Assembly (NCBI GenBank): GCA_963718775.1
Contig: OY970377.1
Coordinates: 418,578-482,577 of the forward strand
Origin: an uncultured Solirubrobacterales bacterium
GTDB taxonomy: Bacteria; Actinomycetota; Thermoleophilia; Solirubrobacterales; 70-9
Direction: 5' to 3'
Length of the DNA stretch: 64,000 bases
Made by a program: the position numbers and the translations under genes. This document shows, piece after piece, positions 26,717-58,508 of the stretch. Within the stretch, counting starts at the first letter, position 1. Every line of letters begins with the position of its first letter. The notes under the pieces were generated by a model. It was not told the DNA's origin. It saw only the letters and a program-made list of their open reading frames with translations, and did no database searches.

Positions 26717-29194
26717 CTAAGCGGCTTCGACCGAGCCCGACCGAGGCGTCACGGCGGGCTGCTCGCCGATCAAGGGAGCCGACGACGTCTCGGCGCCGCT
26801 CGCTTCATCCTCATCGCTCTCGGCCAGGCCGGCGAACGGCGGCGGAGCTGCCGCGGCCTCGGAGCCCGCCCCTTCGGCCTCGACTTCGCGCGGCAGGCGG
26901 CGGGAGACGACCTTGGTCACGCCGTCGCCGCCCATGCTGACGCCGTAGAGGACGTCGGCGGCGTCCATCGTCCGTTTCTGGTGGGTGACGATGACGAACT
27001 GGGCGCGATCGGAGAAGCGCCTGATCAGCTGCAGGAAGCGATCGATGTTGGCGTCGTCGAGGGCGGCCTCGACCTCGTCGAGGATGTAGAAGGGGCAGGG
27101 CCGGGCGAGGAAGACCGCGAAGACGAAGGCGATCGCGACCAGCGACTTCTCGCCGCCGGAGAGCAGTGAGAGCTTGCGGGTCGACTTGCCGGCCGGGGTG
27201 ACCTCGATCTCGACCCCGAGCTCGTCGCGCTGCTCTTCCTCCTCGTCGTCGCCCACCTCGGCGGCATCCTCGCCCTCGGCAGGCGCCTCGCTCTCGGCAT
27301 CGCGGACCGGGCGCAGGGCGACCCGTCCGCAGGCGTCCCCGGCCGCCCGGGAAGAGGTGCTCGATCATCTCCTCGAAGTTCTTCGCGGTCGCCTCGAAGG
27401 TCTGCTCGAAGGCGCGCTCGATCTCACGGTCGATGTCGCGGATCAGCGCCTCCAGCTCGCGCATGCCGCGCTCGGTGTCCTCGCGCTGGGCCTGCAGCGA
27501 CTCGACGTGGTCGCGCGCCTCCTCGTACTCCTGCTCGGCCAGCGGGTTGACCGGGCCGATCTGGGCGCGGCGGCGCTCCAGCCGCTCCAGCCGGCGGTCG
27601 ATTTCGGCGCGCTCCTCGTCGCTCAGCGGCTGCTCGGCCGCGGCGACCTCCTCGCCGAGTCGCTCGGAGATCGAGGCCAGCTCCTTGGCGGCCTCGGCGC
27701 GGCGATCGCCGAGGTGGGCGGCCTCGACCTCGACCTCGGTCAGCCGGTCGGAGGCGGCGGTCATCTCCGTCTGCAGCTCGTACTCGCGCTGTGAGCAGGC
27801 GCGCATCTCCTCGGCGATCTCGTCGCCGTCGCCCTCGCCACCGACGACGCGCTGCTCGATCCGCTCGACCCGGGCGCGAATCGCGGCCTCGGCCGCCGTC
27901 GGCCGCCGCAGCGGCCGCACGGACGTCGTCGAGCAGCTCCTCGCCGGCGGCGAGGCGCTTGCGCAGCATCTCGCGGTGGCGCTCGCCGAGCAGCCCCTCG
28001 GCGCGGCGCGCGTGCCGCGAGGCGCGCTCGGCGCCGCCGCGGACATCGCCCAGAGCCGCCTCGCGGGCTGCCTCGCTGGCGTCGGCTGAGCGGGCCCGCG
28101 CCAGGCCCGTCGCCGGCGCTGGTCAGACCGGCGTCGATCTCGCCCAGCTCCTCCTCCAGCTGCCGGGCTCGTTCGCCCGGCGCGGCGGCGCCCTCGCCGA
28201 CGTCGAGCGTCAGCGGCCCGAGCTCGGCGCGCAGCGCCTCCAGGCCGCTGGTCAACTCCCCCTCGCGGTCGCCGAGGCCGGCGGCGCGGACGGCGATCCG
28301 TTGCTGATCGCCGCGCAGCTTGGTCAGCACGCCCCAGGCCTGGGTGCGCTCGCGGTCGCGGGCGGCAAAGCGCTCCTCGGCGGCGCGCCGCTTCTCGCTC
28401 ACCTCGGCCAGTCGCTTCTCCAGCGTCGCCCGCTGGGCGCGCGCCTCCTGTGCGGCCTTTTCGGCTGCCGCGGCGCGGTCGGCGCCGAAGCGCAGCTCCT
28501 CGGCGACCAGCTGCCCGCGCAGGCCCAGTTCCTCGCGCTCGATCCGCGCTCCCAGCTCGGCCGCCTGCGCCTGGCGCTTCAGCGGCCGCAGGCGAGCGCG
28601 AGCCTCGCGCTCGAGGTCGAGGGCGCGGTCGAGGTTGTCGCGCGCGGCGCGCAGCTTCAGCTCGGCCCGGCGGCGCCGTTTGCGGTGCTTGCCGAGGCCG
28701 GCCGCCTCCTCGATCAGGAGGCGCCGTTCGCGCGGCTTGGAGTGGATGATCGACTCGACCCGGCCCTGGCTGATCACCGAGTGCATCTCGCGGCCGAGAT
28801 TGGTGTCGGAGAGCACCTCGGTGACGTCGACGAGGCGGCAGCGGGCGCCGTTGAGCCGGTAGCCGCCGTCGCCGGAGCGGTCGAGCGTGCGCTTGATCGC
28901 GATCTCGGAGAGCTCGGTGGCAGCGCGGCCCTCGGAGTTGTCGATCGTCACCTCGACTTCGGCGGCGCGGCGCTGGCCGACGCCCTTGCCGCCGGCCGAG
29001 ATCACGTCCTGCATCGAGGCGCCGCGGATCGCCCCCGGGCTCTGCTCGCCGAGCGCCCAGAGCACCGCGTCGGTGATGTTCGACTTGCCCGAGCCGTTGG
29101 GGCCGACGATCACGCTGACGCCGGGCGAGAACTCCAGCCTCGCCCGCTCGGGGAACGACTTGAACCCCTTCATCTCGATCGATCTCAGATACAT
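26717..29194 (-). CDS. smc: SMC-family chromosome partition ATPase, unusually short (~825 codons) with no recognisable hinge; at least 3 frame changes
   Basis: N-terminal head MYLRSIEMKGFKSF...GPNGSGKSNITDA is on 27761..29194. The coiled coil is on 27424..27969 and 26811..28046. C-terminal head LSLLSGGEKSLVAIAFVFAVF...FYILDEVEAALDDANI...VTHQKRTM is on 26717..27256. It sits in the canonical rnc-smc-ftsY position. Confidence 0.8.
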
Positions 29195-29272
29195 CTGGCT
29201 ATTCGCTCCGCTTCCAGTCCCTCACGCTCGGATCGCAAGGCTCTCTATTGAGTCGGACGCAACGGCGGACAT

Positions 29273-29951
29273 CTAGTCCCCAAGCCGTTTCAGCGCCTGC
29301 TCGGCGGCCGCTTGCTCGGCCGCCTTCTTGCTCCGGCCCACCCCGTCGCCGACCCGCTCGGAGTCGACGACCGCCGCCACTTCGAATTTCCGTCGGTGCG
29401 GTGGGCCGGATTCGGCGATCACCTCGTAGCTTACGTGCGCGTGGCGGCGCGCCAGCAGCTCTTGCAGCGCTGACTTGAAGTCGACCATCGTCTCGGCCGG
29501 CGTGCTCGATCCGCGGCTCGAAGGCGGCGGCGACGGCATCGGCGATGCGCTCGAAGCCAAAGGCGAGGAAGCAGGCGCCGATCAGCGCCTCGGTCACCTC
29601 GGGCAGCGGCCGCTCGCCGCTGAGCAGCACCTCGGCGGGAATCCCCGCCACCATCTCCTCCGGCTCGTTGGCGCGCAGCATCGCCGGCACGCCAAGCTCG
29701 CGGCCGACCTCGGCGCAGGAGACGCCGCTGACCGCCTGGTTGTGGATCTTGGTCAGGCCGCCGGCGTCGACGTCGGGGAAGCGGTCGACCAGGTCGCGGG
29801 CGACCGCGAGGGCAAGCACGCTGTCGCCGAGGTAGGCGAGGCGCTCGTAGGACTCGGTGCGGTCCTCGGTCCAGGAGGAGTGGGTGAGCGCCTGGCGCCG
29901 CAGCTCCTCCGGCAGGTCCTCGATCAGTTCCGCCAGCGCGGCGGCACTCAC
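29273..29951 (-). CDS. rnc: Ribonuclease III; 1 frame change
   Basis: The catalytic domain ...ERLAYLGDSVLALAVARDL... is within track ORF 29199..30650, and the dsRBD ...DFKSALQELLARRH..VSYEV...GPPHRRKFEV is on 29273..29560. The GTG start overlaps the acpP stop (GTGA at 29948..29951). Confidence 0.85.
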
Positions 29952-30193
29952 GCCGGGGCGTGCTCGAGCACGAACGCGACCGCGTCGCCGACGGTCGCGA
30001 TCTTCGTCGCCTGCTCCTCGGAGACGGAGATCCCGTAGGTGTCCTCCAGCTCCATGACCAGCTCGTAGAGGTCGAGCGAGTCGGCGTCGAGGTCCTCCTT
30101 GAAGCGGGTCGCCTCGCCGATCTTCGCGGCGTCGACCTCGAGCTCCTCGGCGAGGTGCTCGCGGACCAGGGTGAGGACTTCCTCGCGGGTCAT
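29948..30193 (-). CDS. acpP: Acyl carrier protein
   Basis: Intact 81 aa with the DLDADSLDLYELVMELE phosphopantetheine-site motif. Confidence 0.9.
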   Translation of the reverse strand: MTREEVLTLVREHLAEELEVDAAKIGEATRFKEDLDADSLDLYELVMELEDTYGISVSEEQATKIATVGDAVAFVLEHAPA

Positions 30194-30205
30194 CGAGGGT
30201 TCCTA

Positions 30206-31232
30206 TCACGCGCCGTCCCCGCCGTCCCGGGCAGCGGCCAGCTCGCCGCGGCCGGCGCCGCCCTCGCGCAGCAGCGTCAGCCGTGCGACCGACCGCATCG
30301 ACCTCGACGCAGCGCGCCGCCAGGCGCACCGCGTTGGCGATCCCCTCGGCGCCCGAGCTGCCGTGGCCGACCACGGCGATGCCGCGCAGGCCGAGCAGGA
30401 TCGCGCCGCCGGTCGTGTCGGGGTGCAGCTCGCGGCGCAGGCCGCCGAGCGCCGGGCGCATCAGCAGGCCACCGAGCGCGGCCAGCGGGTTGGAGCGGGC
30501 GGCGTCGCGGATCGCCCCGGTCACCGTCTTCGCCGTGCCCTCCATCAGCTTCAGCGAGACGTTGCCGGTGAAGCCGTCGGTGACGACCACGTCGGCCGCT
30601 CCTGCTCGGAAGGTCGCGCCCCTCGACGTTGCCGACGAACTCGATCCCACTCGCCTGCGGAGAGGACCGCGTGGGCGGCGACCACCTCCTCACGACCCTT
30701 GCCCGCCTCCTCGCCGACCGAGAGCAGCCCCACGCGGGGTCGCTCGACGCCGAGCACGGCCTCGCTGAAGGCGGCGCCGAGGAAGGCGAACTGGACGAGG
30801 TGCTGGGCGCGCACCTCGACGTTGGCGCCGACGTCGAGGAAGAGGACCGACTTGCCGGGGACCGGGAGCTGCACGGCAAGCGCCGGTCGCTGCACTCCCT
30901 TCAGTCGTCGCAGGCCGAAGGTGGCTGCTGCCATAGTCGCCCCGGTCGAGCCGGGACTGACCATCGCCTCGGCATCGCCGTCGGCGACAGTCGGCGGCAG
31001 CGCGAACAACCGAGGCCTCTTTCTTCGCCCGCACGGCAGAGACCGGATCGTCGTCGTTGCCGATCCACTCCGCGGTCGGGACGACCTCGATCCCGTCGAC
31101 GCCGTCGAGCCCGAGCTCCTCCGGGGGGCCGAAGACCCGCACCCGGATCCCGTCGTCCGCAGCCATTCGCGCGCCCTCGGCGAGCACGCCAAAGCCCTGC
31201 TCGGCCCCGAACCCATCCAGGGCGACGGTCAC
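30206..31232 (-). CDS. plsX: Phosphate acyltransferase PlsX; at least 3 frame changes
   Basis: Pieces lie on 30690..31307 (VTVALDGFG...), 30551..31216 (...GSTGATMAAA...FLDVGANVE...) and the N-terminal part of 29199..30650 (...VVVTDGFTGNVSLKLMEG...GIAVVGHGSS...). The stop at 30206 is inferred in a further frame. Confidence 0.8.
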
Positions 31233-31248
31233 GCCGCGCCCCAAGGCG

Positions 31249-31461
31249 CTACTCCGAGTCGGTGGGCGTCGCCGCGGGCTCGGCGACCGTGTGTTTGATG
31301 ACCTCACGCCCGGCGTAGGTGCCGCAGGTCGGGCAGACGCGGTGCGGCAGGCGCGGGCTGTGGCAGCGCGGACAGCGGTTCAGGCGCGCCTTGCCGGCCT
31401 TGTGGTTGGCGCGCCGCTTGTCGCGCCGGGCGCTGGAGGTTCTCTTCTTTGGGACGGCCAT
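31249..31461 (-). CDS. rpmF: 50S ribosomal protein L32
   Basis: MAVPKKRTSSARRDKRRANHK...CPRCHSPRLPHRVCPTCGTY.... The start is taken at the internal Met of track ORF 31249..31503. Confidence 0.9.
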   Translation of the reverse strand: MAVPKKRTSSARRDKRRANHKAGKARLNRCPRCHSPRLPHRVCPTCGTYAGREVIKHTVAEPAATPTDSE

Positions 31462-31488
31462 CGGTCGCGGGATGGTAGCGGGTTGAGA

Positions 31489-31601
31489 GAGGGAGTCGGG
31501 CACCCCTCCTCTCTCAACTTTTTCGCCTCCAGCGAGGCAGTTCTCGCTGAGGCATAGCGGCGAAAAAGTACAAGCCGTTCGGAGGGGTGCCCGACTCCCT
31601 C
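31489..31601 (-). repeat. Hairpin repeat subfamily B, copy B4
   Basis: Reverse complement is GAGGGAGTCGGGCACCCCTCC-GAACGGCTTGTACTTTTTCG-apex-CGAAAAAGTTGAGAGAGG-AGGGGTGCCCGACTCCCTC. Lies 27 nt upstream of the rpmF start. Confidence 0.9.
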
Positions 31602-32095
31602 AGTAAGCCGCTCTGACTACCGCGAGATCGTCGGCTTGCCAGGTGATCTCGCCGCCCGACCAATCGAGGAGCTTTTGGAGCGTCTCCGGCTCGAAGACGT
31701 CAGCCGATGACCAGCGAGCGAGACTGCTCCTTGACGCGGCGACAGAGCGCCTGGGTCTGCTCGTCGTCGAGCTGGTTGACCGAGAGAACGGAGATGACCA
31801 GGTCCCAGGGCCCGTCGGGCAGCGGGTCCTCCATGCGGGCGAGCTGGACGTCGTCGTAGCTCTGGCGGGCGCGGAAGACCATGTCGGGGCTGGCGTCGAG
31901 GCCGACCACCCAGGCGTCGGGATGGGCCTCGATCAGGCGCCGGGTCGTCTCGCCGGTGCCCATGCCCAGCTCCAGCACCCGCTCGGGCGGGAACGGGATC
32001 GCCGCGATCGCCTGCTCCTGCAGCTCGTCGTAGCGCGGGATCTGCGAGCGGATCCGCTCCAGGTAGACCTCGGGTGTCCAGTCGAATCGATCCAT
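31600..32095 (-). CDS. Class I SAM-dependent methyltransferase; probable C-terminal frame change
   Basis: Track ORF 31700..32095 carries VLELGMGTGETTRRL...VVGLDASPDMV...DLVISVLSVNQL. A plausible continuation ADVFEPETLQKLLDWSGGEITWQADDL.. lies in another frame, down to ~31600. Confidence 0.7.
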
Positions 32096-32153
32096 TCCGT
32101 AATCTCGTCGGAGGGAGCCATCGTAGGCCCCGGCTCAGCGGAGGAGAGTCTCT

Positions 32154-32676
32154 ATGGCACAAGCGACCACGATCATCGACCTGGCGCGGCTGTCCCTGTC
32201 CCATGGCGAGGGTCGCCGCCTCGACCTGCCGGTGCATCTGGAGCCGCTCGAGCTGGCCGGCCAGACCTACGCCGTATCGCCCGAGACCGGTGCAGGCCCG
32301 CATCGACGTCTCCCGCCCCAGCGGCGGCTATGCCTTCCGCCTGCGCTTCGCGCTCCGCATCGAGGGGCCCTGCATGCGCTGCCTGGAAGGCGCGGCCCTG
32401 GAGACCGAGGTCGACGCCCGCGAGGTCGCCCAGGACAACACCGACGACGAGGAGCTGCGCAGCCCCTACGTCGAGGACGAGCAGCTCGACCTCGGCCGCT
32501 GGGCCCACGACGCCGCCGTCCTCACCATCCCCACCCAGTTCCTCTGCCGCCCCGACTGCGCCGGCCTCTGCCCCACCTGCGGCGAGTCCCTCAACGACGC
32601 CGACCCCGAGGACCACAAGCACGAGCAAGCACCGGACCCTCGCTGGGCCAAGCTCAAAGAGCTAAAGCTCGACTAG
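32154..32676 (+). CDS. yceD: YceD/DUF177 family protein; 1 frame change; on the opposite strand to rpmF
   Basis: The N-terminus MAQATTIIDLARLSLSHGEGRRLDLPVHLEPLELAGQTYAV is on 32154..32777. The rest, ...GGYAFRLRFALRIEGPCMRCLE...CRPDCAGLCPTCGESLN, is on 32074..32676. Confidence 0.8.
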
Positions 32677-32687
32677 GGCGCCTGGAC

Positions 32688-32801
32688 GGAGGGACGGGCA
32701 CCCCTCCGAACGGCTTGTACTTTTTTCGGGCACCGGCCCAGGCGTCAGCCCTACCACACTACTTCGAAAAAAGTTGAGAGAGGAGGGGTGCCCGTCCCTC
32801 C
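32688..32801 (+). repeat. Hairpin repeat subfamily B, copy B5
   Basis: Perfect 20-bp outer stem GGAGGGACGGGCACCCCTCC / GGAGGGGTGCCCGTCCCTCC. The inner stem has 6 T paired to 6 A. It starts 12 nt after the yceD stop. Confidence 0.9.
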
Positions 32802-32813
32802 CGCCTACGAGCG

Positions 32814-33299
32814 CTACTGCTGCTCGTCTAGCTCCGGTACCGGCTGTTGCTCCTCGTCCCGCCCAGCCAGCCGGTCGCGGCCACGCTGCACGGCGGCGAG
32901 GAACTTCTGAAGGTTGACCTCGAGCGTGTTGAGGATCTCGTCGGCGTAGTCCTCGGCGCCGAGGCGAATCTCGCGCTCACGCGTGCGGGCGTCCTCGACG
33001 ATCTCGTCGGCGGCCCGCTCGGCCTGCTTGGTGACCTCCTCGTCGGAGATCAGGCGGGCCTGCTGCTCACGCGCCTCGCGGACGATCCGCTCAGCCTCGC
33101 GCTTGGCCTCGGCGAGCATCTCCTGACGCTCCTTGACGATCCAGCGCGCCTGCTTGATCTCCTCGGGGATCGTCGCCCGCATCTGGTCGAGCAGGTCGTA
33201 GATCTCCTCGCGATCGACGCGCACCTGGTCCGTCAGCGGCACGGGGCGCGCGTTGTGAACCACATCGTCGAGCTTGTCTATGAGAACGAGAACGTCCAT
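32814..33299 (-). CDS. Conserved coiled-coil protein (DivIVA / ATP-synthase-b-like repeats); function unknown
   Basis: Intact 161 aa rich in E/R/A heptad-like sequence (...EIKQARWIVKERQEMLAEAKREAERIVREAREQQARL...). The functional call is weak. Confidence 0.45.
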   Translation of the reverse strand: MDVLVLIDKLDDVVHNARPVPLTDQVRVDREEIYDLLDQMRATIPEEIKQARWIVKERQEMLAEAKREAERIVREAREQQARLISDEEVTKQAERAADEIVEDARTREREIRLGAEDYADEILNTLEVNLQKFLAAVQRGRDRLAGRDEEQQPVPELDEQQ

Positions 33300-33403
33300 C
33301 AGCAGGTCGTAAGCCTACGTGTCAGAGGCATCTTCGGTGAAGAAGCGGTTATTTCCTCGGCTTTTTGCAAGCTCTCTCCCACGCCGCACCGCACTCGAGA
33401 AGC

Positions 33404-33903
<500 letters not shown>

Positions 33904-33904
<1 letters not shown>

Positions 33905-34446
33905 CAGTCGGCCTCTCCGTAGAAGGAGACGTCGGCGGCGCCGTAGCGACGCTGGCGCAGGCGAGGCAGCGACTCGATGCGGAGCGGCCGGCCGGCGCCG
34001 CTCTCGACGATCGCCCGCCCGCCCTCGCCGAGAAGGCGGGGAAGATGAGTGTCCAGTTCCTGCCCCACGCGGTCGGCGAGTCTATAGGGGGCGTCGACGA
34101 AGACGAGGTCGAAGACGGCTGCGTCGCCGTCCTCGAGCCGGCCGGCCAGCCAGCGCGCGACGTCGGCTCGGACCAGCTCGACTCGCTCGGCGAGCTCGAG
34201 GCGCTCGACGTTGCCGAGCGCGGCGCGGGTGTCGCGGTCGACCAGGACCGCACGGGAGGCGCCACGCGAGAGCGCCTCGATCGCCAGCGCCCCGGTGCCG
34301 CAGTAGAGGTCGAGGACGCTGGCGCCGCCGACGTCGCCGAGGGCCGAGAAGATCGCCTCGCGGGCGCGGTCGGAGGTCGGCCGCACCTTCCAGCCGCGCG
34401 GCGCGACGAGGTGCTGCCCACCGAGCTCTCCAGCAATCACACGCAC
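33904..34446 (-). CDS. rsmD: 16S rRNA (guanine966-N2)-methyltransferase
   Basis: VRVIAGELGG..L..P.G..VRPTSDRAREAIFS.L...VLDLYCGTGALAIEALSRGA...FVDAPY. The start is the GTG inside track ORF 33904..34557. Confidence 0.85.
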
Positions 34447-34447
34447 A

Positions 34448-36585
34448 TCACAGTGGTATCGGGTCGGCGGCGCCGGCGCCGAAGCGGCGGCGCGCCGCCT
34501 CCAGCAGTGGGCCGAGCTCGGCCGCTTCGAGCGAGCCGTGCTCGCGCAGCAGGACAAGCACCTCGTCGCGGGCGGCGATCAGGACCGCGCGTGTCCTCGG
34601 GCAGCTCGGCGACGGCGAAGCGCGGCAGGCCATGCTGGCGGGTGCCCAGCACCTCGCCCTCGCCGCGCAGGCTGAGGTCGACCTCGGCCAGCTTGAAGCC
34701 GTCGCTCTCGCGCGCGACCGCCTTCAGCCGCCGCCGCGCCATCTCGCCGGCGTCTTCGGGGAAGAGCAGGCAGATCGATTCGTGCTCGCCGCGGCCGACC
34801 CGGCCGCGCAGCTGGTGCAGCTGCGAGACGCCGTAGCGCTCGGCGCCCTCGATCACCATCACGGTCGCGTTGGCGACGTCGATCCCGACCTCGATCACCG
34901 TGGTCGCGACCAGCACGTCGGTCTCGTCCCGAGCGCGAAGGCCTCCATCGCCGCCGCCTTCTCGGCCGAGCGCATCTGGCCGTGGATGACGCCGACCGAG
35001 AAGTCGCGCAGCTCGCCTGCGGCCAGCCGCTCCGCCTCGACCTCGGCCGCCCTGCCCTGCATTTTCTCGGACTCCTCGACCAGCGGGCAGACGACGTAGG
35101 CCTGACGCCCTTCGCGCAGCTGACCGCGGATGAACTCGTAGGCGCCGGCGCGATCGTCCTCCTCGACGATCCGCGTCCGCACCGGCTTGCGACCCGAGGG
35201 CAGCTCGTGCAGCGCGGTCGTGTCGAGGTCGCCGTAAGCGGTCAGCGAGAGCGTGCGCGGGATCGGCGTCGCGGTCATGTGCAGCACGTGCGGCGCCATC
35301 CCCTCCACCCCCTTCGAGTCCAGCGCCTTGCGCTGCTCGACCCCGAAGCGGTGCTGCTCGTCGACGACGCAGAGGCCGAGGCGGGCGAACCTGACCGTGC
35401 GGCTCGATCAGGGCGTGCGTGCCGACGATCAGGCCCAGCTCGCCGGTGGCGAGGCGCTCGAGGGCTTCCTTGCGCCGGGCGGCCGGCGTGGCCCCGGTCA
35501 GCAGCGCGAACGGGGTCGCCTCTTCGGCCAGCAGCTTGCCCAGGGTCACCGCGTGCTGCTCGGCCAGCGTCTCGGTCGGCGCCATCAGCACCGCCTGGAA
35601 GCCGGCTTCCAGCGCCCGCAGCATCGAGTAGAGGGCGACGACGGTCTTGCCCGAGCCGACCTCGCCCATCAGCAGCCGCTGCATCGGCTCGCCGGAGTCG
35701 AGATCGGCGTCGATCTCGTCGAAGGCCTTCAGCTGGTCCCGGGTCGGCTCGAACGGCAGCGACTCGATCCAGCGCCCGACCTGCTCGCCCGGCTTGCCGA
35801 GCCGCGGCGCCGGCCGCGCCGCCCGGTGCGCCCGCTTGCGCGTCGCCAGGATCGCCTGGTAGAGGAAGAGCTCCTCGAAGCGCAGCCGCTCGCGCGCCTC
35901 CTCGACGTCCTCCTCGGTCTCGGGGAAGTGGACCGCCTTGATCGCGTCGGCGACTCCCGCCAGCCCCCGCCGCACCCGCAACTCCGCCGGCAGCGGCTCG
36001 AGCACGTTGCCGCCACGGACGCGACTCGCCTGCTCCATCCACTGCCGCAGCCGCTGTGCTTTCAGCTGCTCGGTTCCGGGATGGACGGGAACCAGCGCCC
36101 TCGCTGCGGCGTCGCCGCGTGAACTCGTATTCGGAGACGCGGAAGCCCCGTTTGTCGCGCGAGCCGGTGAGCAGCATCTGCGTCACCTTCGGTCAGCTTC
36201 GGGGCCAGCCAGGGCTGGTTGAACCAGGTCGCCCTGACCGCGCCGCTCTCGTCGCCGACCTTGACGCTGAGGATCGAGAGGCCGCGGCGGCGAAACGGAC
36301 GCGGCGCGTTGCCAAGCACCTCGACCGCGATGCGTCGCCTGCTGCTTCGGCTCGAGGCTCGCGACCGGCACGATCTGTGCGGTCACGATGGCTGTGCGGG
36401 AAGCGCATGAGCAGGTCGCCGACGGTGGCGATGCCGGCACTCCGCCGCGACCTCGGCCGAGCTTCGGCCCGACCCCCTCCAGCGCCTGCAGCGAGACGTC
36501 GAGGGCGCTCGGCCGCGGCCAGTGGACCGGGGCATCGCGCAGCTGCGCCTGCGTTAGCTCCGAGCTACCTGCGAAAGCGCGCACT
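34448..36585 (-). CDS. recG: ATP-dependent DNA helicase RecG; many frame changes
   Basis: Pieces lie on the tail of 36183..37373 (LQALEGVGPKLG), 36062..36319 (wedge domain), 34437..36038 (MGEVGSGKTVVAL..., ATTVIEVGIDVANATVMVI), 34895..35308 and 34448..34633 (C-terminus). Confidence 0.85.
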
Positions 36586-38217
36586 ACTGAGCGGCGAGCA
36601 GCCACCACCAGCTCGGCTGACCGCCTTCGTGGGTCTCGATCTCGACGCCGTCCGGGACGTGGGTGTCGAGCTCGTCGAGCGGCGATCGGCGCCTCGTCGC
36701 CGGCGATCACGGTGACGATCTCGGCGCCCTCGGCGAGCTTCTCGATCGTCGCCGCGAAGGTCGAGCCGGCGCCGCCCCAGGCGACGATCTCCTCGCCGGC
36801 GAAGCCGACCGCGTCGCCCTTGCGGAAGCGCCCCTGGGCATCGTCGCGGGCCGCCGGGGCAACGCCGCCGTCGGCGATCGTGCCGAGCGCCTCCTCGAGC
36901 CGCTCCGCGTTCTCGTCGGCGGTGGCGTCCGGATCGAGCTCGACCAGGGTCAGGAGGCTCTTCTGCAGCGAGGTCGCGGCGACGACCCGGGCCGGCTTCT
37001 CCGACAGCTCGCAGGCCCGCTCGGCGGCCATGACCACGTTCGAGGAGCTGGGGAAGACGAGGACTTCCTCGGCCGGGACCTCGTGGATGCCGGCCAGCAG
37101 CTCGTAGGTCGAAGGGTTGAGCGTCTCGCCGCCGGGCACGACGTGGGCGCCGAGCTCGGCGAAGAGGCGCTCGAGGCCCTCGCCGGCCGCGACCGCGAGG
37201 GCGCCGGTGCGACCGCCGTCGAGCCGGGCGCGCCGCTCGGCGATCTGCTCGCGCATGTCGGCGACGTCGAGGTTGGTCACCTTGCCGGCGTCCTCGAAGA
37301 GGGCGACGGCGGCCTCGGGCTCGTCGGTGTGGACGTGGACCTTGAGCGTCACCTCGTCGCCGACGACGAGCACCGAGTCGCCGAGGCCCTCCAGCCGCGG
37401 CAGGAAGTCGCGGCCGCTGAGGCCGCGTGCCGGAGACGATGAAGTTGGTGCAGTAGCGGAAGCGGCTGTCCTCGTGGTGGGGCCGGCTGAGCCGCGGCGC
37501 CTCGTGGTGGGAGACCTCGGGCACCGCCGCGCCGTCGCCGCGCAGGCCGGCGACGACGCCGGCGAGGATCAGCACGAGGCCGTAGCCGCCGGCGTCGACG
37601 ACGCCGGACTCGCGCAGCACCTCGAGCTGCTCGGGCGTCCGCTCGACCGCCCGCTGGCCGTCGGCGATCGCCCGCTCCAGCACCTCGGCGAGGATCGCGT
37701 CCTGCTGCTCGTCGGGGACGCCGCGGTCGAGCCGCTGCTTGTCGGCGTCGAGGCGGGAGAGCTGGCGGGCGATCGAGTGCGCCATCTCGCGGAAGACGGT
37801 CAGCATCGTCCCCTCGGCCGGCTCGCGCACCGAGTCGTAGGCGGCGTCGGCGGCGCTGGCGAAGGCGGAGGCGACCAGCACCGGGTCGATCAGCTCGCCG
37901 GGCCGGCTCGCCAGCTCCTCGGCGGCGCCGCGGACGATCTGGCTGAGGATGACGCCGGAGTTGCCGCGGGCGCCCATCAGCGCCGCCCGGGCCAGCGCCT
38001 GGACCAGCTGGGTGCGGCCGATCTCGTCGACCTCGAGGCCGTCGAGCCGGTCGAGCTCCTCCATCACCGCCCGCATCGTCATCGCCATGTTGTCGCCGGT
38101 GTCGCCGTCGGCGACGGGGAAGACGTTGAGGTCGTTGACCTCCTGGCGGCGCTCCTCCAGGTTGGCGTAGGCGGAGGTGACGACGCGCCGGAAGCGCACG
38201 ATCGAGGGATCTGGCAT
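36585..38217 (-). CDS. DAK2-domain fusion protein YloV; frameshifted
   Basis: The N-terminal Dak2 domain (MPDPSIVRFRRVV...VFPVADGDTGDNM...GARGNSGVILSQI) is on 36565..38550 and the C-terminal half on 36183..37373. The last codons ...GGQPSWWWLLAAQ are in a third frame. Confidence 0.8.
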
Positions 38218-44318: not shown

Positions 44319-45505
44319 TCCCGGAACCGTGCCGTGATCAAAGCATCCATACCAACGGCCTTAACCGTGCTGCTCAATGCGGTTTCTCGCGCGGGTGGCG
44401 CAGATGCGGGGGGGCCGAGAACGGAGGCCCCGCCCCCGCCCGCAGATCCCCCCGCAGCTGCGACGGGCCCCGTGCGCCAATCACTTCCGAGCAGGACGGG
44501 GGCGACGAAGGTCCTTGCTTCGTCTAGCTGGTCGGCGATCTGGAAGGCGCTGGCCAGGGTCGGGCCGCCCTCGAGGAAGAGGCTCGTGATGCCGCGGCGG
44601 CCCAGATCGGCAAGGGCTGCCTCGATGCCGTCAGCGACGAGGATCTCGGCGCCGGCCTCACGAAGGGCTGATGCATCAGCTTCGGGTGAGACGACGACGA
44701 GCACCGGCGAGTCGTCGAGGGTTCGGAGCAGCTGCGAATCGAGCGGCAGACGGGCCTGGCGGTCGAAGACGACGCGAACCGGCTGCCGCGAGCTCGTTCC
44801 GGTGCGCTTTATGCTCGCCTGGGGTGCATAAGGCGCACCGGAAGGCTCTGGGCGGGCGGTTAGGAGGGGGTCGTCGGTTAGGACGGTGTCGATGCCGACG
44901 GCGATCGCGTCGGATTCGGCGCGCCAGCGGTGGACCAGCTCACGGCTGCGCTCGCCGGAGATCCAGGGCGAGTCGCCGGGCGGGGCGCTGGTGCGGCCGT
45001 CGAGCGACATCGCCAGCTTCAGGGTGACCAGCGGCAGGCCCGTGCGCGCATGCTTGCGGAAGGGCTGGTTGAGCAGGCGGGCCGCGGTGGCCTCCTCGCC
45101 TGCGGCGAGCTCGACCTCGACGCCGCCGTCGCGCAGGATGCCGGGCCCGCGCCCGGCCGCCTTCTCGCTCGGATCATCGGAAGCGATCACGACCCGGGCG
45201 ATTCCCGCCTCAAGGATCGCCTCGGTGCAGGGCGGTTGCCGCCCCGTATGCGCACAGGGCTCCAACGTCACGTACATCGTCGCCCCCGCCGGGTCCTCTC
45301 CACGCCTCTCGCAATCCGCCAGCGCCGCCCGCTCCGCATGCAGGCCACCCAGCTCGGCATGAAACCCCTCGCCGATCACCTCGCCGCCTCGCACCACAAC
45401 AGCTCCGACAAGAGGATTAGGACTGACCCGACCGCGCCCACCCTCCGCCAGCTCAAGCGCCCGCGCGAGATGCGACCGATCCGTGCCTGTCAGTTGCGCA
45501 TTCAT
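44312..45505 (-). CDS. ribD: Bifunctional riboflavin deaminase/reductase RibD, carrying two in-frame repeat insertions
   Basis: C-terminal part of chimeric track ORF 44312..46282, from MNAQLTGTDRSHLARALELAEGG...HAERAAL...TLEPCAHTGRQPPC.... The ATG is at 45505. Confidence 0.85.
   Translation of the reverse strand: MNAQLTGTDRSHLARALELAEGGRGRVSPNPLVGAVVVRGGEVIGEGFHAELGGLHAERAALADCERRGEDPAGATMYVTLEPCAHTGRQPPCTEAILEAGIARVVIASDDPSEKAAGRGPGILRDGGVEVELAAGEEATAARLLNQPFRKHARTGLPLVTLKLAMSLDGRTSAPPGDSPWISGERSRELVHRWRAESDAIAVGIDTVLTDDPLLTARPEPSGAPYAPQASIKRTGTSSRQPVRVVFDRQARLPLDSQLLRTLDDSPVLVVVSPEADASALREAGAEILVADGIEAALADLGRRGITSLFLEGGPTLASAFQIADQLDEARTFVAPVLLGSDWRTGPVAAAGGSAGGGGASVLGPPASAPPARETALSSTVKAVGMDALITARFREW
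44384..44455 (+). repeat. Repeat family R3, copy a (inside the ribD 3' coding region)
   Basis: TTCTCGCGCGGGTGGCGCAGATGCGGGGGGGCCGAGAACGGAGGCC...CCCGCAGATCCCC, shared with 45566..45670. Translated as ..GGSAGGGGASVLGPPASAPPARE... Confidence 0.7.
44799..44841 (-). repeat. Short palindromic element R1 inside the ribD coding sequence
   Basis: CCGGTGCGCTTTATGC-TCGCCTGGGGT-GCATAAGGCGCACCGG: a 16-bp stem with one G-T pair. The 21 nt GGTGCATAAGGCGCACCGGAA are identical to 51594..51614. Confidence 0.85.
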
Positions 45506-50933: not shown

Positions 50934-52251
50934 CGCGCCTCAGGCGGCAGATGAAGAAGCCGGTGGTGCGATCGCGATCCGGACGGAGCTGAAAACGCTC
51001 TCCGCCGTCGACTTGCTCCTCGTTCTCCCGGGCGCTGATCGTGCAGGTCGAGTAGACGAGCGTGCCGCCCGGTCGGAGCGCCGCCCTCGCCCTTTGGAGG
51101 AGTTGGGCCTGGACCTCGACCAGGCGGTCGATGGTGGCCGGCGACTTGCGCCAGCGCGCGTCGGGGCGCGAGGCGAGGGCGCCCAGGTCGGAGCAGGGGG
51201 CGTCGAGGAGGACCCGGTCGAAGCCGGGGGCCATGCCCGGTTGCGCGGCATCGGTCTCGATCACGGTGACGCTGCGCAGGCCGAGGCGACGAGCCTGATC
51301 CGCGACTTCGGCGGCACGCTCGGGGTCGTTCTCCACCGAGATCACCTCGCCGCGGTCGCCCATCCGAGCGGCGATCTGGCCGGTCTTGATGCCGGGGCCG
51401 GCGCAGAGATCGAGGATGTGCTCGCCGGGCTGGGGGTCGAGGACCTCGACCACCGCGGCCGATCCCCGGCTCTGCGGAGTCAGCTCGCCAGCAGCGATCA
51501 GCTCCGGCACGAGGTCGCCGGTCCGCCCCTCGATCGCGATCATCTCCGGCAGCGCCAGCACCCCCTCGCTTGCAGTGCGCCTTTTGCTCCCGGTGGGTGC
51601 ATAAGGCGCACCGGAACCAGCGGCGCGGGCGTCGATGCCGGCGTCGCGCAGCTTGGCGAGGATGGAGTCGCGGTCGGTGCGCAGGGTGTTGACGCGGAAG
51701 GCGACCTCGGGCGGCTCGTTGCAGGCGGCGAGCAGGGAGCGGGCCTGCTCGGGCCCCAGCTCGTCCCACCACATCTGCGCCAGCCAGAGCGGCGCCGAGT
51801 GGGCGACGGCGGCTGCCTGCGGGGTCGAGTCGTCGCCGAGCAGCGACTCGACCAACGAGGCGCGCTCGCGGGTCGCCCGGCGCAGGACGGCGTTGACCAG
51901 GCCGGCGGCATGCGCGGCGCCGGCCTGCTTGACCAGCTCCACCGCCTGGTCGACCGCGGCGTGGTCGGGGGTCCCGTCGGCGAAGAGCAGCTCGTACATG
52001 CCCAGCCGCAAGGCTCCCAGCAGCGGCGGGTCGAGATCGCGCAGCGGCCGGTCGACCAGCTGCGAGAGCGCCGCGTCGATCGTGCCGCGGCGCTGCACCG
52101 TGCCGTAGGCGAGCCGCTGCGCCTGGGCCCGCTCGCGAGCGTCGAGCGCACGCTCGTCGGCGGCTTCGCGGAAGGCGCGCTCGGTGTGGGCCTCTTCCTC
52201 GAAGGTCGCCCGGATCGTCTCGTAGGCGAGGGTGCGAGCCGGAGCAATCAT
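50914..52251 (-). CDS. rsmB: 16S rRNA (cytosine967-C5)-methyltransferase RsmB, carrying the R2 in-frame insertion
   Basis: Intact 445 aa with a NusB-like N-terminal domain, then ..LDLCAGPGIKT...DRVLLDAPCSDLG...GGTLVYSTCT. Confidence 0.9.
   Translation of the reverse strand: MIAPARTLAYETIRATFEEEAHTERAFREAADERALDARERAQAQRLAYGTVQRRGTIDAALSQLVDRPLRDLDPPLLGALRLGMYELLFADGTPDHAAVDQAVELVKQAGAAHAAGLVNAVLRRATRERASLVESLLGDDSTPQAAAVAHSAPLWLAQMWWDELGPEQARSLLAACNEPPEVAFRVNTLRTDRDSILAKLRDAGIDARAAGSGAPYAPTGSKRRTASEGVLALPEMIAIEGRTGDLVPELIAAGELTPQSRGSAAVVEVLDPQPGEHILDLCAGPGIKTGQIAARMGDRGEVISVENDPERAAEVADQARRLGLRSVTVIETDAAQPGMAPGFDRVLLDAPCSDLGALASRPDARWRKSPATIDRLVEVQAQLLQRARAALRPGGTLVYSTCTISARENEEQVDGGERFQLRPDRDRTTGFFICRLRRDDAGDE
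51575..51614 (-). repeat. Short palindromic element R2 inside the rsmB coding sequence
   Basis: GTGCGCCTTTTGC-TCCCGGTGGGT-GCATAAGGCGCACCGG. Homologous to R1 and translated in the same element frame (SGAPYAPTGSKRRTAS). Confidence 0.85.
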
Positions 52252-52262
52252 GACAATGGATC

Positions 52263-52318
52263 GCGTTCAAATCGCCACGGATTCGAACCCCCGGAAGTCA
52301 CCGTGTCGATTTGAACGC
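52263..52318 (-). repeat. Hairpin repeat family D, copy D1
   Basis: GCGTTCAAATCGCCACGG-ATTCGAACCCCCGGAAGTCA-CCGTGTCGATTTGAACGC. It ends one base before the fmt stop codon (52319..52321). Confidence 0.8.
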
Positions 52319-53226
52319 TCACAGTTTCGGCAGCTGGTGGCCGCGCAGGTAGGCGTCTGCCGCCATCGACTTGCCACCGGCCGGCTGCACCACCTCGAGC
52401 CGCAGGGCGCCCCGGCCGCAGCCGAGCAGCAGCGCCCCCCACTCGGCGCGCACCTCGCCGGCCTTGACGCCGACATCGACCGCGCGCGCTCGCCGCACCC
52501 CCAGCCGCTCGCCGCCGCTGGTCTCCAGATAGGCGCCAACGTGCGGAGTCAGCGCACGGACGATGCGGGCCAGCTCGACCGCCGGCCGCTTGGGGTCGAG
52601 GCGGCGCTCCAGCGAGGCGATCTTCTCCGCGTAGGTGGCCTCCGCATCGTCCTGCTCGACGAAATCGAGTCGCCCCTCGGCCAGCAGGTCGAATGCCCGC
52701 ACCAGCAGCTCGCCGCCGAGCGTGGCCAGACTGCGCGGCAAGCGCTTCGAAGTCTTCCTCGGAGCCGATCGGCAGCTCCTCGCGGAGAGCGACCGGCCCG
52801 GAGTCGAGGCCCTCGGTCAGCTTCATCACGCAGACGCCCGGTGCGCTCGTCGCCGGCCATGATCGCCCGCTCGATCGGCGCCGCGCCGCGCCAGCGGGGC
52901 AGCAGCGATGGGTGGATGTTGAGCATCGGCCACTCCGAGAGCAGCGGCTCGCGGATCATCTGGCCGAAGGCGCAGACCGCGAGCGCCTGTGGCTGGACGG
53001 CGCGGATCTGCTCGAGCGCCGCCTCGTCGTTGACGTTCTCGGCCTGCAGCAGGTCGATCCCCAGCTCGGCGGCGGCCTCGGCGGCGGGTGGCGCCTGGGT
53101 GCGGCGCCCGCGGCCCTTGGGGCGATCGGGGGGCGTGACGACCAGCAGCGGCCTGTGCGCCGACTCGGCCAGCTGGCGCAGCACCGCCGCGGCGAACTCC
53201 GAGGTGCCGAGGTAGACCGTCCTCAC
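52319..53226 (-). CDS. fmt: Methionyl-tRNA formyltransferase; 2 frame changes
   Basis: 52549..53625 (VRTVYLGTSEFAA...NIHPSLLPRWRGAAPIERAIMAGDERTG), then 52248..52829, then 52319..52741 (C-terminal domain). Confidence 0.85.
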
Positions 53227-53242
53227 GCGTCGCACTGTGGGC

Positions 53243-53294
53243 GCGTCAATCGACACGGTGACTGCCGGGTATTCGAGTCCGTGGCGATTGACGT
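53243..53294 (+). repeat. Hairpin repeat family D, copy D2
   Basis: GCGTCAATCGACACGG-TGACTGCCGGGTATTCGAGT-CCGTGGCGATTGACGT. It is the inverted counterpart of D1 on the other side of fmt. Confidence 0.8.
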
Positions 53295-56263: not shown

Positions 56264-56773
56264 ATGGCGCTCAATCTCAGTCCGGGAGAGCAGGTGATCT
56301 TCCAGGGCCATCCTTCCTGGCGGGCGATCCTCGGCTTCTACCTGAAGGGCATCCTCGTCGCGGCGATCGTCGGCGTACTCGCCAGGCTCTTCGACGTGAG
56401 CAGCGCCACGGTCTTCCTGATCGTCCTCGTGATCGTCGGCCTTACCGTCCTGATCGGCTTCGTCAAGCGGATCGCGACGACCTACACGATCACCGACCGC
56501 CGCCTCAACATCCGCCGCGGCATCATCTCTCGCGAGGTTCAGGAGACCCGCCTCGAGCGGGTCCAGAACGTCAACTACCAGCAGTCGGTCTACCAGCGCC
56601 TGATGCAGATCGGCGACGTCGATTTCGACACGGCAGCGGGCGACGACTACAACTTCGTCTTCGCCGGGGTGGCTGACCCCCAAGACGTCGTACACAGGGT
56701 CGACCAGGCGACGGGAACGGGTACTGCCGGGACACACGGACTAGGCGAGCCTCAACCGCCAACTACTGGCTGA
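56264..56773 (+). CDS. Membrane protein with a bacterial PH (bPH_2 / YdbS-like) domain
   Basis: Intact 169 aa: two transmembrane segments followed by ..YTITDRRLNIRRGIISREVQETRLERVQNVNYQQSVYQRLMQIGDVDF... Confidence 0.7.
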   Translation: MALNLSPGEQVIFQGHPSWRAILGFYLKGILVAAIVGVLARLFDVSSATVFLIVLVIVGLTVLIGFVKRIATTYTITDRRLNIRRGIISREVQETRLERVQNVNYQQSVYQRLMQIGDVDFDTAAGDDYNFVFAGVADPQDVVHRVDQATGTGTAGTHGLGEPQPPTTG

Positions 56774-56785
56774 CTTTTGCGGGAG

Positions 56786-56900
56786 GGCGGGATCCGGGTG
56801 GGGGTTTCGCTTAACTTTTTCGAGGATCGTCGATTGCTGACGCCTCGGGCGAGCTGCCGCGAAAAAGTACAAGACGCTTCACCCCCACCCGGATCCCGCC
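56786..56900 (-). repeat. Hairpin repeat family A, copy A7
   Basis: Perfect 19-bp outer stem GGCGGGATCCGGGTGGGGG / CCCCCACCCGGATCCCGCC around the conserved core, in reverse orientation. Confidence 0.9.
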
Positions 56901-57141: not shown

Positions 57142-57258
57142 GGCGGGGACGGGGTAGGGGTGAAACGTCTTGTACTTTTTGGCGGAAGCTCAATCGAGGC
57201 GCCAGCTATCCGGCGATCCTCCAAAAAGTTAAGTGGAACCCCTGCCCCCGTCCCCGCC
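57142..57258 (+). repeat. Hairpin repeat family A, copy A8
   Basis: GGCGGGGACGGGGTAGGGG-TGAAACGTCTTGTACTTTTTGG-apex-CCAAAAAGTTAAGTGGAA-CCCCTGCCCCCGTCCCCGCC. The inner stem carries a compensated CG-to-GG/CC change. The 3' arm touches the metK stop codon. Confidence 0.9.
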
Positions 57259-58508
57259 TAAGCAGCGGCCACAGCAGAACCAGCAGCCGCCTTCAAAGCC
57301 TCAGCCCGATCTGTCTTCTCCCAGGTGAAGGCATCGCCCTCCCTGCCGAAGTGCCCGTACGCCGAGGTCTGGCGGAAGACCGGCCGGTGCAGATCGAGGT
57401 AGCCACGGAAAGCTCCCGGGCGTAGGTCGAACTCGCTTTCGACTATGCGGGAGATCTGCGAATCCGGAAGCTTGCCGGTGCCGAAGGTCTCGACCATCAG
57501 AGAGATCGGCCGGGCGACGCCGATCGCGTAGGCGACCTGGACCTCGCAGCGCTGCGCGAGGCCGGCGGCGACGACGTTCTTGGCGACGTAGCGCGAGGCG
57601 TAGGCGGCCGAACGGTCGACCTTGGAGGGATCCTTGCCGGAGAAGGCGCCGCCGCCGTGGCGGGCCATGCCACCGTAGGTGTCGACGATGATCTTGCGGC
57701 CGGTGAGGCCGGCGTCGCCGACCGGGCCGCCGATCACGAACTTGCCGGTCGGGTTGACGAGGAAGTGCTGGCGCAGCTCGTCGGCGTCGTAGAGGCCGGC
57801 GGCCTCGGCGCCGAGCACCGGCAAGACGACGTGCTCCCAGAGGTCGGGCTTGATCTTCGACTCCGACTCGACGCCCTCGGCGTGCTGGGTCGAGATCAAG
57901 AGCTTCTCCACTTTGACGGGACGGCCATCGGCGTAGCGGACGGTGACCTGGGTCTTGCCGTCGGGACCGAGATAGTCGAGCGTGCCGTCCTTGCGCACCG
58001 CCGCCAGCCGTTCGGCGAGCCGGTGGGCGAGGTGGATCGGCATCGGCATCAGCGCCTCGGTCTCGTCGGTCGCGTAGCCGAACATCATTCCCTGATCGCC
58101 GGCGCCGGCGATCAGCAGCTCGTCTTCGACCGAGCCCTCGGTGCGGTTCTCGTAGGCGAGGTCGACGCCCTGGGCGATGTCGGGCGACTGCTTGTCGAGC
58201 GAAACCAAGACCGAGATGTGATCGCAGTTGTAGCCGTAGTCGCCGTGGTCGTAGCCGATATCGCGAATCGTCTCGCGGACCAGCTCGGGGACGTCGAGAT
58301 GGACCGTGGTCGAGATCTCGCCGGAGACCACCGCCATGCCGGTGTTGACAAGGGTCTCGCAGGCGACCCGACCCTCCGGATCGCCGGCCATCACCGCGTC
58401 GAGCACGGTGTCGGAGATCGCGTCGGCGACCTTGTCGGGGTGGCCCTCGGTGACGGACTCGGAAGTGAAGAGGTACTCGCCCTCGGCGAGCGGCTGGATC
58501 TCGGTCAT
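57258..58508 (-). CDS. metK: S-adenosylmethionine synthetase
   Basis: Intact 416 aa with [16 protein letters not shown]...[12 protein letters not shown]...[19 protein letters not shown]. Confidence 0.95.

Follow-up and report, generated by a model that had tools for sequence, protein, structure and literature searches.

The window analyzed here is a 64-kb stretch of DNA from an uncultured Solirubrobacterales bacterium. Its feature of interest, at positions 31489 - 32802, is a 1.1-kb cassette of two divergent genes, encoding a methyltransferase and YceD, which is bracketed by two inverted hairpin repeats, B4 and B5 (Table 1). The neighboring genes are all on the minus strand. Four of them (recG, rsmD, coaD and p161, the gene of a conserved 161-residue protein) lie to the right of the cassette, and five (rpmF, plsX, acpP, rnc and smc) lie to the left. 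The first-pass annotation of the window had placed a methyltransferase on the minus strand and yceD on the plus strand, and Pfam agrees with both assignments, although each of the two frames holds a one-base insertion. The methyltransferase has no specific NCBIfam family at the cut-off. The linkage of yceD to rpmF is among the most conserved gene adjacencies in bacteria. In the window, yceD is opposed to rpmF. This arrangement is called 'flipped' below, and the one with yceD co-directional with rpmF is called 'canonical'. The junction on the p161 side of the cassette is designated J1, and that on the rpmF side J2.

Table 1. Positions of the cassette, its bracketing repeats and the adjoining genes in the window.
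Feature	Position	Strand	Remarks
B4 hairpin repeat, 113 nt	31489..31601	-	Between the methyltransferase stop codon and rpmF; covariance model R1, 94.9 bits
B5 hairpin repeat, ~115 nt	32687..32802	+	Between the stop codons of yceD and the 161-aa gene; R1, 99.7 bits
B4 cassette-proximal arm	31563..31593		31-nt perfect inverted repeat of 32695-32725
B5 cassette-proximal arm	32695..32725		Partner of 31563-31593
B4 cassette-distal arm	31497..31523		27-nt perfect inverted repeat of 32768-32794
B5 cassette-distal arm	32768..32794		Partner of 31497-31523
Class I S-adenosylmethionine (SAM)-dependent methyltransferase, ~165 aa	31600..32095	-	Pfam Methyltransf_25/11/12 (Methyltransf_25, E=2e-12)
yceD (DUF177), 173 aa	32154..32676	+	Pfam PF02620, E=1e-22
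Divergent spacer, ~55-58 nt	32096..32153		Between the methyltransferase and yceD starts; consensus of 91 loci
Fixed flank upstream of rpmF	31462..31488	-	-10-like TACCAT (reverse complement of 31472-31477)
rpmF (ribosomal protein L32)	31249..31461	-	Pfam L32p, E=5e-22; first gene of rpmF-plsX-acpP-rnc-smc
p161, conserved 161-aa coiled-coil protein	32814..33299	-	Last gene of the fixed upstream block recG-rsmD-coaD-p161

A repeat search found two perfect inverted blocks in B4 and B5: a 31-nt block, CGGGCACCCCTCCGAACGGCTTGTACTTTTT, in the arms adjoining the cassette, and a 27-nt block, AAAAAGTTGAGAGAGGAGGGGTGCCCG, in the arms adjoining the flanks. They correspond to the near-identical inverted pair, with blocks of about 30 and about 27 nt, that had been described in the first-pass annotation. 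Each element has a 20 - 21-nt perfect GC-rich outer stem and forms a long hairpin (RNAfold for B4), in which the inner stem is ACTTTTTCG/CGAAAAAGT and the internal loops are asymmetric. The centers, about 40 nt each, are unrelated to one another. The outer stems are self-consistent within B4 and within B5, but differ between the two. The last two nucleotides of B4 overlap the TGA stop codon of the methyltransferase gene (31600 - 31602). The T- and A-runs of both elements are inside the hairpin and not 3' of it, and a simple promoter and terminator scan gave neither a promoter nor an intrinsic (Rho-independent) terminator at B4 or B5.

The two elements belong to a family, from which the covariance model was built, that has eight copies in the window. 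When up to 3 mismatches were allowed, the core word AACGGCTTGTACTTTTT had 8 matches in the window compared to 0 expected. The stem word GGGCACCCCTCC is confined to B4 and B5, with 4 matches against 0.87 expected, and the other six copies have in common a different stem variant, GGGGTGAAGCG.../...CGAAACCCC. Other B copies in the window are also positioned 0 - 37 nt past stop codons. The hairpin energies of the copies range from -68 to -88 kcal/mol. Across the copies, 18 of the 19 outer-stem pairs are changed on both sides, and 95.6% of the cells are paired, compared to 76% when shuffled and 43 - 61% with the partner slid. The outermost ~12 nt of the stems are different in every copy. A search against Rfam 15 gave no match in the whole window at the gathering score except a tRNA, and no match at E<=1 in the region 31400 - 32900.

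The locus was compared with its counterparts in relatives, gathered from 80 species-representative genomes and 80 metagenome contigs. The related loci, labeled with L-numbers, comprise about 10 kb each. Of the 160 classifiable loci, the window included, 82 are flipped and 78 are canonical, so that only 78 have the usual order, in which yceD immediately precedes rpmF and is read in the same direction. The divergent pair of methyltransferase and yceD genes is intact in all 160 and the flanks are always collinear. For instance, L001 and L002, whose YceD is 93% identical to that of the window, are flipped, and L003 and L004 (88 - 89% identical) have the order p161 - methyltransferase (antisense) - yceD - rpmF - plsX. 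The reverse arrangement, with yceD running into rpmF and plsX, that had been predicted from the window sequence therefore exists, and the comparison of related genomes, which the first-pass annotation had proposed as a check, turned up both orientations and not only the present one. No paper found in the literature links yceD, rpmF and inversion.

There is little doubt that the cassette has inverted recurrently. Among the related soil Solirubrobacterales, one orientation has been exchanged for the other on at least about eleven occasions. In a neighbor-joining (NJ) tree of eight flank proteins from 72 taxa, parsimony required 7 flips (bootstrap 6 - 10), compared to about 24 for shuffled states. 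With 110 taxa, the number was 13 (bootstrap 11 - 15), and trees of the left flank, the right flank and the cassette gave 14, 13 and 13 flips, respectively (bootstrap 11 - 19). The fraction of genome pairs in opposite states rises with the divergence of the flank proteins: there is no such pair among the only 5 that diverge by less than 3%, and the fraction is 0.06 at 3 - 6%, 0.20 at 6 - 9% and 0.38 at 9 - 12% before it reaches a plateau at about 0.53. Thus the orientation behaves like a reversible two-state character. Import of a foreign cassette was considered as the cause of the mixed states and was rejected, because the divergence of the cassette follows that of the flanks in opposite-state pairs and the number of flips on the cassette tree matches that on the flank trees. 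Midpoint rooting of the 72-taxon, the 110-taxon and the partition trees put the flipped state at the root of the sampled clade. The flipped state is, by this rooting, as native to the clade as the canonical one, but its assignment as the root state is weak because the character saturates fast.

The two orientations are plausibly equivalent in function, judging from conserved promoter-like motifs. The divergent spacer of the cassette contains blocks that are at least 90% conserved across 91 loci. It holds the yceD Shine-Dalgarno sequence GGAGGAG and two -10-like hexamers: TAATCT (32100 - 32105) points to yceD, and TACGAT, read on the complementary strand at 32120 - 32125, points to the methyltransferase gene. 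In the fixed flank, 150 of 151 loci have a TANNNT hexamer 8 - 16 nt ahead of the rpmF start codon, irrespective of orientation, and in 133 loci it is TACCAT; in the window, TACCAT is 10 nt before the ATG. The cassette would therefore carry its own divergent promoters and rpmF would have one in the fixed flank, making the cassette transcriptionally autonomous and rpmF-plsX independent of it. If so, the flip would be near-neutral and the states would drift to about 50:50, which fits the roughly even distribution that is found.

One more feature of the spacer is a 161-nt insert in L001 (4849 - 5009), which is located inside the conserved CATCGTAAG motif and has perfect 18-nt terminal inverted repeats, GAGTCTGCCCAAGAACCC and GGGTTCTTGGGCAGACTC, with TA on both sides. 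L002, L016 and L024 have it too, their divergent spacers measuring 219 - 222 nt. The insert looks like an IS630/mariner-type miniature inverted-repeat transposable element (MITE) in the putative promoter region.

The breakpoints of the inversion are always within a few bases of the two stop codons. In element-free genomes, the junctions read, for instance, TAG|CTA in L152 (flipped) and TAG-CGC-TCA in L155 (canonical); in L011 the stop codons overlap. Both junctions are occupied by inserts in 64 of 126 genomes. The inserts are about 60 nt or more in length, many of them 100 - 150 nt, and are hairpins of several types. Besides the B type, there are inserts with a 'short' core (CAAAACGCGC..GCGCTTGAGTGTTTTG), inserts containing CCCGGGAGGCTTTGGGAGC and, in L175, a bare stem. 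The last is a hairpin, GAGGAGGG-GTCA-CCCTCCTC, at 3487 - 3522 in the p161 - yceD junction, which has no repeat core. This bare stem and the locus-specific outer stems suggest that the B and 'short' cores sit in, or were lost from, resident GC-rich hairpins. Such an arrangement would explain the apparent covariation of the stems without selection on RNA structure.

The elements turn over rapidly among the window and its relatives. Both are present in the window, only B5 in L001, only B4 in L178 and neither in L086. B4 has orthologs at the same junction in L014, L032 and L178, and is precisely absent from L001, L086, L088 and L011. B5 is absent from L086, L178 and one X2 contig, a flipped relative among the contigs of four soil metagenomes. 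The orientation of the B-type elements follows a strict rule in both states of the cassette. Beside p161, the element runs antisense to that gene in every one of the 14 strong hits among relatives, and the element next to the methyltransferase stop codon is always sense to the methyltransferase gene (12 of 12).

Some cassette junctions contain larger insertions of 0.8 - 1.4 kb, as in L027 (3615 - 4453, with a stretch resembling an open reading frame (ORF)), L034 (1109 - 2422) and L058 (3077 - 4436). The junctions thus appear to be general insertion hot spots.

The two junction elements of a genome do not evolve independently. Their similarity within a genome has a median local score of 75, compared to 25 between genomes (p=1.5e-9), and they are found in direct or inverted orientation to each other in both states. 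The J2 element of L014 has exactly the outer stems of B4 of the window, whereas its center matches that of the L014 J1 element and not the B4 center of the window or L032. Gene conversion between the inverted junction elements is the best explanation of this mosaic. Furthermore, L020 (canonical) and L013 (flipped) share the core at J1 (CTTGAGTG) and that at J2 (CTGGAGTG), and neither core differs in orientation between them. Nothing but the cassette was thus turned in this flip, which would be expected if cassette-proximal stems had been exchanged. In L007, the J2 core alone is reversed. The canonical locus L003 has a solo half-stem next to rpmF, GGAGGGGTGCCCGACTCC, that matches the distal stem of B4.

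The best overall explanation, with a probability of about 0.6, is that the cassette has been flipped recurrently by way of the hairpins at its junctions, the hairpins being likely, but not proven, mediators. A self-contained divergent cassette lies between two fixed operons, recG-rsmD-coaD-p161 and rpmF-plsX-acpP-rnc-smc. Long palindromic elements would accumulate directly past the stop codons and render the two junctions hot. As the elements are palindromic and near-copies of each other, they would repeatedly bracket the cassette with inverted homology. If the cassette-proximal stems crossed over, the cassette alone would be flipped, and a non-crossover outcome would give gene conversion. With its perfect 31- and 27-nt arms, the B4/B5 pair makes this one of the few genomes that would currently be primed for another flip.

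Several observations weigh against this explanation. There is no junction insert in 23 of the 126 genomes, which include both states. A perfect inverted match across the cassette of at least 25 nt was found in 7 of 124 genomes, the window being one of them, and of at least 15 nt in 16 of the 124. When both junctions are occupied, the longest inverted match is at least 15 nt in 25% of cases against 13% in the between-genome null, which is a modest excess. L097 and L018 have no elements and are in opposite states, yet their flank proteins differ by only 6%, so that the elements must either be gained and lost very quickly or be dispensable. The difference between the self-consistent outer stems of B4 and B5 means that no recent crossover within these stems is visible in the window. 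The number of flips was derived from NJ trees of 0.3 - 2 kb of protein alignment and not from whole-genome phylogenies, and the promoter and terminator roles described here are putative, being read from motifs only.

The outcome of crossing-over could also be reached if the DNA broke at the hairpins and was rejoined. One such route would be cleavage of the palindromes at both junctions, with the freed cassette end-joined in reverse. Another would be a replicative or template-switch event by which one copy of the J1 element stays beside p161 and an inverted copy travels with the methyltransferase end. End-joining of this kind, or inversion with duplication of an element, is a rather unlikely substitute for crossing-over, but it accounts for a number of details. 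The orientation rule of the B-type elements is what would be expected if a single J1 element were duplicated on inversion, and the junction elements of L014 are full-length inverted near-copies (99/111). The half-stem of L003 could be a remnant at J2, elements are often lost or truncated, and few genomes have long inverted homology. However, the counts behind the orientation rule are phylogenetically clustered and represent few independent events. A comparison of filled and empty sites gave no clear target-site duplication, the outer stems and centers of B4 and B5 differ in the window, and intact cores have been kept at both junctions across the flip that separates L020 from L013.

The hairpins could also be passengers that settle at any gene 3' end, the recurrent inversion having another cause, such as selection or instability connected with the divergent and convergent transcription of the cassette. 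The position of the other B copies in the window, just past stop codons, would agree with this, as would the opposite states of element-free genomes and the modest excess of inverted matches. This is improbable, since the re-use of the same two junctions in at least about eleven independent events calls for a local mechanism, and since the elements at the two junctions evolve in concert and convert one another.

A programmed switch, in which a trans-acting site-specific recombinase recognizes the conserved arms or stems of the junction hairpins and flips the cassette in populations, is very improbable. It would explain the perfect inverted arms next to unrelated centers, the far better conservation of the arms than of the centers between species, and orientations near 50:50. 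Nevertheless, no recombinase was found among the neighbors within about 6 kb at any locus examined, and element-free genomes exist in both states. The cores differ between species (B, 'short' and others), unlike a conserved recombinase site. Moreover, genome pairs below 3% flank divergence, of which there are only 5, did not include opposite states, and in one element-free strain, of which 24 contigs were read, the orientation was the same at all 10 places listed. The chance that active inversion of any kind, driven by a recombinase or by the hairpins, still flips the cassette in genomes with an inverted pair is just as slim. If it does, cells would differ in which of the cassette genes reads into rpmF-plsX and which collides with the recG-coaD operon.

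An assembly artefact can practically be dismissed: the window assembly is error-prone (~29 one-base insertions in 10.8 kb), but the orientation was the same wherever one strain, or near-identical strains, had been assembled independently (L001 and L002, L020 and L104, L056 and L143, L058 and L146), both states occur in repeat-free junctions, where misassembly is not possible, and the whole structure, at only 1.3 kb, is shorter than typical long reads.

The orientation of the cassette in the window is inherited and not a fresh product of recombination between B4 and B5. The nearest relatives (L001, L086, L085, L010, L032, L014, L175, L177 and L178) are all flipped, and some of them lack B4 (L001), B5 (L178) or both (L086). 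With B4 orthologs in L014, L032 and L178 as well, both the orientation and the elements must be old in this lineage. Loci with the exact p161 protein of the window were found only in flipped relatives of 84 - 90% DNA identity. The proposal of the first-pass annotation that the two repeats had recombined to give the present arrangement thus holds in that the segment inverts recurrently and has hairpins at its junctions, but is not supported for B4 and B5 in the lineage of the window. The same annotation had left it between a fixed inversion and one that still switches. The flipped state is probably fixed in this genome, no sign of ongoing switching having been found, and it is improbable at best that switching continues there. 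Public sequencing runs were screened by word share, and none contained the window strain (the best share was 0.14); for the strain of L014, which has a near-perfect inverted pair, the share was 0.09 or less. A protein look-up gave no record of the exact CoaD of the window.

Invertons, such as Hin/Gin, FimB/E and the shufflons, consist of a short segment that is bracketed by inverted repeats and is found in two orientations. The cassette is bracketed in this way by the 31- and 27-nt blocks. However, the features of a programmed inverton fail here, because no dedicated invertase is encoded within about 6 kb, where the neighbors are the housekeeping genes from recG to smc, and because a recombination site conserved across relatives was not found: the element types differ between species or are often absent, in both states. 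The switching also differs in that it is seen on an evolutionary time scale only and turns whole genes with their own putative promoters, not a promoter or a coding variant.

Replicative transposition, as in IS26, Tn3 and Mu, inverts the intervening DNA and adds an inverted copy of the element. A flipped state with an inverted pair, as in the window and L014, is the product that would be expected from a canonical locus with a single J1 element. The elements at the junctions, however, are 113-nt hairpins that encode nothing; no transposase is known for them, and no target-site duplication was seen. In human genomes, recurrent 'toggling' inversions occur between inverted segmental duplications. 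These resemble the cassette in that the same interval inverts between inverted repeats and produces homoplasy on the tree. They differ in scale (kb to Mb compared to 1.1 kb), in organism, and in having simple instead of palindromic repeats.

The B elements are not classical MITEs, as neither conserved terminal inverted repeats nor a clear duplication of the target site was found when filled and empty sites were compared. They are closer to the repetitive extragenic palindromic (REP) sequences and REPINs, which are extragenic two-arm palindromic elements of about 100 nt (Bertels & Rainey 2011, PMC3116915; PMC3337134). The likeness comprises the inverted arms around a variable spacer, the long hairpin, the many copies (eight in 64 kb), the location past genes, and the presence or absence between relatives. 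Unlike REPINs, the B copies vary in their outermost stems with compensating changes, as if a core were set in a locus-specific hairpin. The Solirubrobacterales lineage and the element sequence are unrelated to those of the described REPINs, and no REP-like repeats described in Solirubrobacterales were found in the literature. Membership of the B elements in the REP/REPIN class is tentative: no REP-associated tyrosine transposase (RAYT), the single-copy Y1 transposase expected to be flanked by such repeats, has been linked to them, and no search aimed at one was made.

Small palindromic repeats, the Correia repeats, have been found at the ends of inversions in Neisseria (Spencer-Smith et al. 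2012, PMC3454330). As with the cassette, these chromosomal inversions came to light through genome comparison. The inversions in Neisseria are large and mostly unique, however, whereas here a 1.1-kb cassette has been toggled at least 11 times at the same two junctions. The event is of a known kind, a repeat-associated inversion, and the unusual part is the repeated toggling of a small housekeeping cassette at identical junctions across a lineage. The inversion here is recurrent, gene-scale and probably neutral.

By reversing this single 1.1-kb cassette at the same two junctions, an entire order-level soil lineage has broken and restored the yceD - rpmF adjacency on at least about 11 occasions. 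The locus may serve as a natural replicated experiment on how palindromic elements make rearrangement hot spots, on the rates of gain, conversion and loss of such elements, and on the relevance of yceD - rpmF co-transcription. It is also a warning that a repeat-flanked 'invertible' segment in a single genome may be an old drifting polymorphism and not a switch.

The one-base insertions mentioned above break the frame of the methyltransferase gene near 31702 and that of yceD at about 32290. Relatives, including those in the contigs of the four soil metagenomes, do not have the extra base in yceD. Intact 164-residue orthologs of the methyltransferase are present in relatives, and the full-length 173-residue YceD proteins of relatives are 82 - 94% identical to that of the window. 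When the region 27168 - 38000 was compared with L001, nearly all of the ~29 one-base insertions were inside housekeeping genes (smc, rnc, plsX, recG, fakA, the methyltransferase gene and yceD), whereas one-base deletions numbered about 7, several of which fell within or beside intergenic spacers. Given this number of insertions in 10.8 kb, the frameshifts look like uncorrected long-read assembly errors, which probably affect the whole window and have artificially broken most of its ORFs. Pseudogenization of the cassette was rejected, as its frameshifts match the assembly-wide pattern of one-base insertions.

The p161 protein appears to be very strongly constrained. It is 96 - 100% identical in nearly all relatives, compared to 80 - 90% for its neighbors; L076, at 70% over part of the length, is an outlier. 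No Pfam or NCBIfam family was found for it above the cut-off, and it has a weak DivIVA/Wag31-like similarity.

The window contains other inverted pairs of hairpin repeats. A second pair of B copies, at 56786 - 56900 (minus) and 57142 - 57258 (plus), is 82% complementary over 78 nt and brackets 241 nt without a convincing ORF. It is positioned between the 3' ends of a gene for a PH-domain-like membrane protein (56264 - 56773, plus) and metK (57258 - 58508, minus), and may be another small invertible or remnant segment. The fmt gene, located between def and rsmB, is bracketed by a 56-nt inverted repeat (52270 - 52325 and 53234 - 53289, 84% complementary), each arm of which is palindromic. This hairpin family is distinct from B, but has a similar gene-bracketing layout. 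A further hairpin family is represented by two related 53-nt palindromic repeats, at 44792 - 44844 and 51569 - 51621, which are 6.7 kb apart, 79% complementary and have the core GGTGCGC(C)TTATGC...GCATAAGGCGCACC.

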